DNA of 64,000 bases, from NCBI RefSeq assembly GCF_048403405.1, contig NZ_CP183129.1. One strand, written 5' to 3'. The notes below the pieces were generated by a model, which was not told the DNA's origin, made no database searches, and saw nothing but the letters and a program-made list of their open reading frames with translations. This DNA is from Escherichia coli. GTDB taxonomy: Bacteria > Pseudomonadota > Gammaproteobacteria > Enterobacterales > Enterobacteriaceae. A program made the position numbers and the translations under genes. Shown here in pieces: positions 32,923-33,486 of this stretch (positions within the stretch are counted from its first letter, which is position 1; every line of letters begins with the position of its first letter).

Positions 32923-33300
32923 GGGGAATACCCTTATACGTTCTCAGAACAGGCAGCAAAAAAACAAATGAGATCAAGGTAATATATCTTCACTTGCAGG
33001 CTTGAACAGCAGAAAATTTGCGAGCATGATCGCAATTATTTCACTGCCAGGGATATCAATGGCTTCCAGTAAATCGCTACAGCAGGCAATTGCCAATATA
33101 AAAATCTGGCATAAGGGTGAACAGCGCGCACCGCATAAGCCATTGTTATTGCTATACGTATTAGCGGGATACCTGAATGGACATCCACGCCTTTTCGATT
33201 ATTGTAGTGGAACAGTCTACGAGGATGCAGTTCGAAGTGAGTAAGTAAAGGTTGCTGGAAACGATCAATGCCGCCATACAATGATATTTGAGGATCAACA

Positions 33301-33486
33301 ATGAGTAATAAAAACTACGAAAGTCACCGCAAAGCGATTGTTAGTAAAGGTATACCACCCGCTCTATTAAATAGGCTCACCAATTCGGATGTTCAGGTGA
33401 TCAATACCTTCTTAACACGAGTGAGCAAACTGGAACTATCTCAACAAGAGAAAGACTGGATCATAAAAATCATCTCTATGGTTTAG
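33301..33486 (+). CDS. Small hypothetical protein (61 aa)
   Basis: ORF with an SD-like GAGGA ~6 nt upstream of the ATG; no recognisable domain. Confidence 0.3.
   Translation: MSNKNYESHRKAIVSKGIPPALLNRLTNSDVQVINTFLTRVSKLELSQQEKDWIIKIISMV

Follow-up and report, generated by a model that had tools for sequence, protein, structure and literature searches.

Phosphorothioate-dependent restriction enzymes of the EcoWI type, in which a sulfur-binding domain (SBD) is combined with an HNH domain, restrict dnd-modified plasmids, and the mass predicted for EcoWI is 33.4 kDa (PMC7461809). The main text of that paper holds neither an accession nor a sequence for EcoWI, and the intact Escherichia coli homolog considered here is likened to it by architecture and size: it shares the SBD–HNH architecture, and its 290 amino acids are about the length expected for 33.4 kDa (PMC7461809). 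At the locus described here, the core of an open reading frame of 80 codons (ORF80) is the authentic 5′ end of a gene of this EcoWI/ScoMcrA type (33059–33202). It differs from the known enzymes in that residues 1–48 are all that is left: most of the SBD has gone, and with it the entire HNH domain.

The second small reading frame of the locus, ORF61, encodes a protein identical to the RefSeq hypothetical protein WP_000066585.1 and falls in PHROG 25874, a family without assigned function. No sequenced phage of the INPHARED collection encodes it (tblastn against 50,697 phage records gave no match), and its link to the gene cassette described below is without annotation in the records viewed. Among characterized small proteins, the Xis-like recombination directionality factors come closest: ORF61 is alike in size (~60 aa), is basic (pI 9.9) and, in several genomes, shares an operon with the gene of a tyrosine recombinase. 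It differs from them in having no excisionase, helix–turn–helix or winged-helix match in sequence or fold, in the signal-peptide protein that sits between recombinase and ORF61, and in occurring also without a recombinase, and the likeness is best taken as a resemblance only. A genuine small protein of the same hotspot is YthB, reportedly named in a ribosome-profiling preprint on E. coli small proteins (bioRxiv 10.1101/511675); ORF61 and YthB differ in strand, location and sequence. Segment B, defined here as the stretch from 33203 to ~33496 that contains ORF61, is missing from the K-12-like strain examined, where the match ends at query position 303, and ORF61 is missing with it; profiling data from K-12 are therefore uninformative about ORF61.

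The window, i.e. the whole stretch of 64,000 nucleotides that was analysed, is E. coli chromosome in which the fim genes are followed by nanC–nanM–nanS (29368–32264) and then by a variable island. Past nanS, the cargo of this island comprises an HNH endonuclease gene, the AbiEii/AbiEi pair, DUF4942, CbtA/YeeU, RadC and DUF932 genes and a type 1 BREX system. The gap of interest (32923–33523, 601 bp) is bounded by the HNH gene and abiEii, and several complete genomes, TUM14771 and TUM1226 among them, are 100% identical to the window across 32900–33540. On its left border, the HNH gene (32272–32922, minus strand, 216 aa; RefSeq WP_001037973.1, ‘HNH endonuclease’) matches the Pfam HNH model (E = 2e-4) and PADLOC models for type IV modification-dependent enzymes (mREase; E = 7.5e-6 and 2.5e-5), and it is divergent from the restriction-endonuclease gene of which ORF80 holds a remnant. 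On its right border, the AbiEii toxin gene (33524–34471, minus strand) is recognized by Pfam (AbiEii, E = 6.8e-30) and by RefSeq, and the AbiEi/DUF6088 antitoxin gene (34464–34859 in RefSeq, minus strand) matches the DUF6088 and AbiEi_4 models. The start codon of the latter is uncertain, the longest ORF having 154 aa from an ATG at 34928 (34464–34928, minus strand) versus a 131-aa product in RefSeq.

We consider it highly probable that the gap is the scar of a recombination event, on the outer margin of a variable island hotspot beside nanCMS; ORF80 would then be a dead fusion of gene fragments and ORF61 the sole intact survivor of an operon. The two small plus-strand frames of 80 and 61 aa that the first-pass annotation had reported in a gap of about 600 bp are indeed present, ORF80 at 33002–33244 with a TTG start and ORF61 at 33301–33486 with an ATG start. 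The minus strand of the same gap holds ORFs of 81, 46, 40 and 33 aa, none of which matches a known family. Of 2000 mononucleotide shuffles of the 601-bp gap, 41% contained an ORF of 61 aa or more, 13% one of 80 aa or more, and 9% a pair of ORFs of 61 aa or more. ORF length is not beyond chance in this gap, and homology is what separates ORF80 from ORF61.

By homology with genomes that carry the intact gene, the first part of the gap (32923–33058) separates the divergent HNH and restriction-endonuclease genes and corresponds to their promoter region. A perfect palindrome within it, TTGCGA-N6-TCGCAA (33018–33035), could be a candidate operator of this gene pair; the terminator scan flagged it solely as a terminator-like stem–loop. 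That palindrome was the only terminator-like match of the scan, and no terminator is predicted between 33059 and 33301. The sole sigma-70-like match of the promoter scan (33178–33205) spans the junction described below and lies within chance expectation. At the other end of the gap, ORF61 and abiEii converge on a spacer (33487–33523) in which the same scan found no terminator-like site and GAATTTCA forms a tandem duplication (33488–33503). An Rfam scan of 32700–33800 at E up to 1 returned no match and RNA folding of 33230–33530 gave z = +1.05, without structure; therefore a structured RNA in the gap was rejected.

To judge by its alignments, ORF80 is a chimera of two unrelated gene fragments, a pseudogene scar and not a gene. 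It is made up of a non-coding leader, 48 endonuclease codons, a junction of 12 nt and nine s64-derived codons, after which a nonsense codon closes the frame. Its first 19 codons, from the TTG (33002–33058), are promoter and leader DNA, and the gene proper begins with the ATG at 33059, the equivalent of which is annotated as the start in genomes with an intact gene. From there to 33202 on the plus strand lie codons 1–48 of the 290 codons of an SBD–HNH restriction endonuclease gene. Residues 25–68 of ORF80 align with positions 2–45 of the 284 positions of NCBIfam NF045808 (phosphorothioated DNA-binding restriction endonuclease; E = 1.7e-16) with a score of 60.2 bits versus a curated cutoff of 180, so that ORF80 falls short of membership as a whole protein. 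Aligned with the N-terminal 54 residues of the intact E. coli protein (290 aa), residues 20–74 agree at 51 of 55 positions (93%), and DNA identity to the intact-gene loci is 96–98% and ends at 33202. In the 100%-identical genomes, RefSeq annotates 33059–33208 as a pseudogene, ‘missing C-terminus’. An orthologous 5′ end together with its promoter, at the same locus, marks 33059–33202 as descended from the SBD–HNH gene.

The intact gene is found at this very site, divergent from the same HNH gene, in other E. coli such as STEC005 and S1-SRL-01-C; in O157:H7 H6437 the endonuclease gene is intact and the HNH gene is absent. Its 290-aa product aligns with the ScoMcrA SBD (5ZMO) over residues 5–143 and with the TagI HNH domain over residues 170–250. 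Measured against this alignment, ORF80 keeps 48 of ~145 SBD residues, i.e. an incomplete sulfur-binding domain, and it has no Pfam HNH match, the C-terminal HNH domain being missing. A product of ORF80 would accordingly be expected neither to bind phosphorothioate DNA nor to cut DNA.

One may ask whether the peptide that runs for 61 residues from the native ATG (33059–33244) is a functional truncated protein, for instance a mini-SBD decoy or a regulator. The native promoter region, the start codon and the RAPHKP motif region are kept, and the polymorphisms inside the endonuclease fragment are almost all synonymous in the E. coli copies compared. The synonymous bias is explicable, however, if the variation descends from intact alleles or was acquired by exchange with them, given that the 5′ endonuclease region is matched in 3120 genomes versus 969 for segment B. 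Moreover, such a peptide would hold just the third of the SBD mentioned above and end in a tail of unrelated s64 sequence; its start codon has become ATA in MB7671 (locus L005), a sign of decay of the fragment; and the K-12-like strain carries an independent and different truncation of the same endonuclease gene, beside yjhR. A functional truncated peptide is, in our estimate, extremely improbable. With the scar as the preferred reading, the accidental frame ORF80 is removed from the candidate small proteins of defence islands.

The breakpoint of the deletion or illegitimate recombination lies within 12 nt (33203–33214) that have no confident parent gene, directly followed by a TCTACGA heptamer (33215–33221) common to both parent genes. 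Downstream of it, protein and DNA alignments and tblastn identify 33215–33304 (plus strand) as the 3′ remnant, about the last 27 codons, of s64, a gene for a 64-aa signal-peptide protein unrelated to the endonuclease; the remnant is in frame with the endonuclease fragment. Its translation, ‘VYEDAVRSE*VKVAGNDQCRHTMIFED’, aligns with ‘LYENAVRSEQVKVAASAQCRHTMTFED*’ of Citrobacter, Enterobacter and E. coli, which is the region of the C-terminal half of intact s64 (‘...CLYENAVRSEQVKVAASAQCRHTMTFED*’), and intact s64 genes stand directly upstream of ORF61 homologs. The TAA that ends ORF80 (33242–33244) is a CAA (Gln) in the s64 homologs, and the alignment stays in frame up to the ATG of ORF61, which the original TGA stop of s64 (33302–33304) overlaps. 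A tblastn search with s64 against the identical E. coli loci gave 27 aa at 67% identity (E = 9e-10).

Members of the s64 family are taken here as intact ORFs of 62–73 aa with an N-terminal signal peptide, features that 33215–33304 no longer has. The family comprises 108 proteins, all from Enterobacteriaceae and all ‘hypothetical’, and s64 matches no model in Pfam, NCBIfam or PADLOC. All E. coli loci examined share this junction, an indication of a single ancestral event. The scar thereby illustrates how a chimeric ORF can arise in frame over a deletion junction.

ORF61 (33301–33486, plus strand) is of a different nature. The first-pass annotation had credited it with a reasonable Shine–Dalgarno (SD) sequence, and this is borne out by GAGGA at 33290–33294, 6 nt before the ATG and within the last codons of the s64 remnant. 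Homologs have an equivalent ‘tttgagga’ upstream, with TAGGA in the E. coli lineage of loci L005 and L010. An SD inside the last s64 codons, with the s64 stop at or near the ORF61 start, has the appearance of a translational-coupling layout. The protein is intact, basic and 61 aa long, and it matches phrog_25874 over its full length (E = 3.7e-47, residues 1–61 on profile positions 1–61 of 61). Its AlphaFold2 model consists of four helices (pLDDT 85.9), for which the fold search found no specific match, and no Pfam, NCBIfam or PADLOC model matched the sequence. Weak Arm, Apo-CIII and PDGF_N matches in profile searches of ORF61 and s64 were dismissed as noise. That ORF61 might be a frameshifted remainder of the endonuclease gene was rejected, there being no similarity to the intact endonuclease.

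Six other enterobacterial genera have ORF61 homologs (61–84% identity) that share its start and are of comparable length; all begin with MS(N)KNYESHR and have 60–65 aa. An exhaustive search of cluster representatives recovered diverged small homologs at 63–68% identity, and a scan of species-representative genomes recovered others at 67–80% in Citrobacter sp. NCU1 (two copies), Enterobacter sp. JUb54, Phytobacter massiliensis, Serratia sp. DD3 and Kluyvera (truncated). Further homologs come from an IMG/VR contig (84%) and Klebsiella aerogenes (80%). The long repeat proteins P0125, P0135, P0136 and P0138, which also matched among the cluster representatives but whose scores are summed weak matches to tandem repeats, were discarded. 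An s64–ORF61 pair 80% identical to the E. coli protein was also met in a record labelled Chryseobacterium sp. 18061 (Bacteroidota; CACSKA010000001.1), which is probably a mislabelled or contaminated enterobacterial assembly.

Codon comparisons between pairs of ORF61 homologs gave pS values of 0.79–0.93, i.e. saturated synonymous sites, versus pN values of 0.18–0.31. Within E. coli, seven sequences differ by four synonymous and one non-synonymous substitutions (binomial probability under neutrality ~0.01), apart from a frameshift in one copy, which an IS element interrupts as well. Measured by conservation and translation signal, the yardsticks of the first-pass annotation, ORF61 holds up, in view of a protein conserved across enterobacterial genera, a coding substitution pattern and an SD; ORF80 is the chimeric pseudogene scar. 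ORF61 is thus a real conserved small gene, and one that is probably still under purifying selection.

It could nevertheless be argued that ORF61 is itself a relic, silent or neutral in its E. coli context and intact-looking because the scar is young. Its upstream partners and the operon promoter are lost, and its annotation in RefSeq is inconsistent, in that genomes with identical DNA may or may not list the gene. Some copies are frameshifted or truncated (frameshifted variants P0121–P0134 and locus L023) and therefore seem to be decaying. The E. coli copies are at least 95% identical, which would have left little time for decay. Against this speak the synonymous excess just given and the comparison with the adjacent s64 remnant, which has more SNPs per base (5 in 98 nt versus 5 in 186 nt for ORF61). 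The start codon is also intact in all sampled E. coli copies, the SD is kept in either of its two forms, and the exact protein is found on at least 1000 contigs. We regard the relic reading as unlikely, though still deserving of consideration, and prefer that of an intact survivor.

The operon from which ORF61 would have survived can be seen elsewhere. In rare E. coli (L026–L028), in K. aerogenes (L033/L034) and in Citrobacter (L012 and L013), an intact cassette has the order tyrosine recombinase (193–205 aa, catalytic domain only, PF00589), s64 and ORF61 homolog. The s64 start overlaps the recombinase stop by 4 nt in L026–L028, L033/L034 and L012 and by 17 nt in L013 (where this could be checked), and ORF61 homologs begin 0–4 nt from the s64 stop. 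In Enterobacter (L014) the cassette is truncated at its 5′ end, the last 34 recombinase codons remaining upstream of s64–ORF61, and a CbtA/YeeU/RadC/DUF932 operon converges on the pair, as in the window. As a rule s64 lies behind a recombinase and the third gene varies. ORF61 homologs also stand alone, upstream of a primase–helicase gene (L007), after an Hha-family gene (L008) or beside sulfatase genes (L009 and L015). In several Enterobacteriaceae the cassette is near tRNA-linked integration sites; the window itself contains no tRNA and no match to the leuX-derived attR repeat. Its ORF61 is an orphan, the last gene of a cassette without recombinase or intact s64.

In the E. coli thrW-associated phage-like element of locus L027, a 15-bp inverted repeat (14 of 15 positions complementary; 6984–6998 and 8381–8395) flanks the cassette, which hints at an invertible or mobile unit; neither the window nor Citrobacter has the repeat, and with ~0.2 chance occurrences expected it is close to what chance would give.

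A bolder interpretation holds that the recombinase, s64 (predicted to be exported as a 46-aa disulfide mini-protein) and ORF61 form an uncharacterized functional module of enterobacterial integrated elements, with ORF61 as the retained part, possibly a new small regulator, anti-defence or exclusion factor that is beneficial alone. If true, this would account for intact ORF61 in ~18% of complete E. coli genomes; it is considered improbable. If the cassette does prove functional, ORF61 would be an easy first target. For ORF61 taken as an intact operon survivor, its size, charge and operon context suggest, as a guess only, a small basic helical protein of the cytoplasm that serves a mobile-element cassette in an accessory or regulatory role by binding a partner protein or nucleic acid. 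The endonuclease pseudogene and the ORF61 hypothetical protein are already in databases; what is new is the second gene fragment (s64) and the three-gene cassette. The analysis thus yields an inconsistently annotated bona fide small gene, ORF61, and an undescribed cassette of a small tyrosine recombinase and two mini-proteins.

The distribution of these segments bears on a third proposal. Of the 5426 complete E. coli genomes, 969 contain segment B, without exception attached to the endonuclease fragment, and 160 contain the AbiE pair of the window. LY180 (NC_022364.1), a derivative of E. coli W, has the AbiE segment at 99.7% identity. Contexts to the right diverge at ~33496–33505, just past the ORF61 stop: depending on the genome, ORF61 is followed by AbiE with a CP4-like island and BREX, by a DUF932 fragment with IS2 and Hha, by FosA7.5 with ISL3, or by IS3 with Zorya I (the alternatives include L005, L010, L023 and L025). 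On the left side, Zorya II replaces nanC/nanM in some strains (L004 and L021). This gene content makes the site a defence and cargo hotspot. From the counts of 969 versus 160 genomes and the varying right-hand neighbours it follows that ORF61 belongs to the fixed left flank of the hotspot and is not an AbiE or HNH component.

The first-pass annotation had suggested that one or both small ORFs might be immunity factors, antitoxins or regulators working with the HNH nuclease or the AbiE pair, and the setting does invite the idea: the island is rich in defence genes (HNH, AbiEi/AbiEii and CbtA/YeeU, with BREX nearby), and ORF61 is a genuine small protein of basic character whose gene has an SD. 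Yet ORF80 is a two-gene chimera stopped by a nonsense codon, AbiE has its own antitoxin in AbiEi, and co-occurrence fails by the counts just given. Nor is AbiE or this HNH gene found near the ORF61 homologs of Citrobacter, Klebsiella, Phytobacter, Serratia and other E. coli loci, and searches of PADLOC, Pfam and NCBIfam gave no similarity of ORF61 to known families. A role of either ORF as a partner of the flanking defence genes is thus left unsupported and is judged very improbable; for ORF61 in particular, a function as immunity factor or antitoxin for HNH or AbiE is unlikely. The gap gives no sign of a new defence mechanism.

The course of events behind a recombination scar can be pictured as follows. 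In the ancestor, the HNH gene and the gene for the 290-aa phosphorothioate-dependent SBD–HNH enzyme would have been transcribed away from each other. One old event, either a deletion or an illegitimate recombination, would then have joined codon 48 of the endonuclease to the middle of s64, the source of which would be a mobile-element operon for a 205-aa catalytic-core tyrosine recombinase, the 64-aa signal-peptide protein and the 61-aa protein. ORF80 would be the accidental frame across this junction and ORF61 the only intact survivor of the operon, with SD and start codon kept. Transcription of ORF61 probably proceeds by read-through from the surviving endonuclease promoter, with translation from its own SD, because the operon promoter is deleted, no terminator is predicted in 33059–33301 and the endonuclease promoter region is intact. 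Among the loci searched, no genome was found with the presumed ancestral order of an intact endonuclease gene followed by the cassette.

Some further observations concern the surroundings of the gap. A 29-aa ORF (32186–32272, minus strand) directly follows the HNH gene and reaches into the 3′ end of nanS; it belongs to the YthB family (PF23516, E = 6.9e-20) and is a ‘hypothetical protein’ in RefSeq here and YthB in the K-12-like strain. The nanS gene itself (31284–32264, plus strand) is a full ORF of 326 aa, labelled in RefSeq as a pseudogene ‘missing C-terminus’ in all genomes viewed, the K-12-like one included; the label is probably an artefact of the length of the annotation model and not a sign of decay. 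Segment B with ORF61 is also present on ~24 E. coli plasmids at 98–100% identity (e.g. NZ_AP023207.1 and NZ_CP042894.1), and there has therefore been movement from chromosome to plasmid or the reverse. One of these plasmids, NZ_AP023207.1, carries the full stretch of HNH gene, endonuclease remnant, ORF61 and AbiEii, and ORF61 is found as well in one record labelled as a Klebsiella pneumoniae plasmid.
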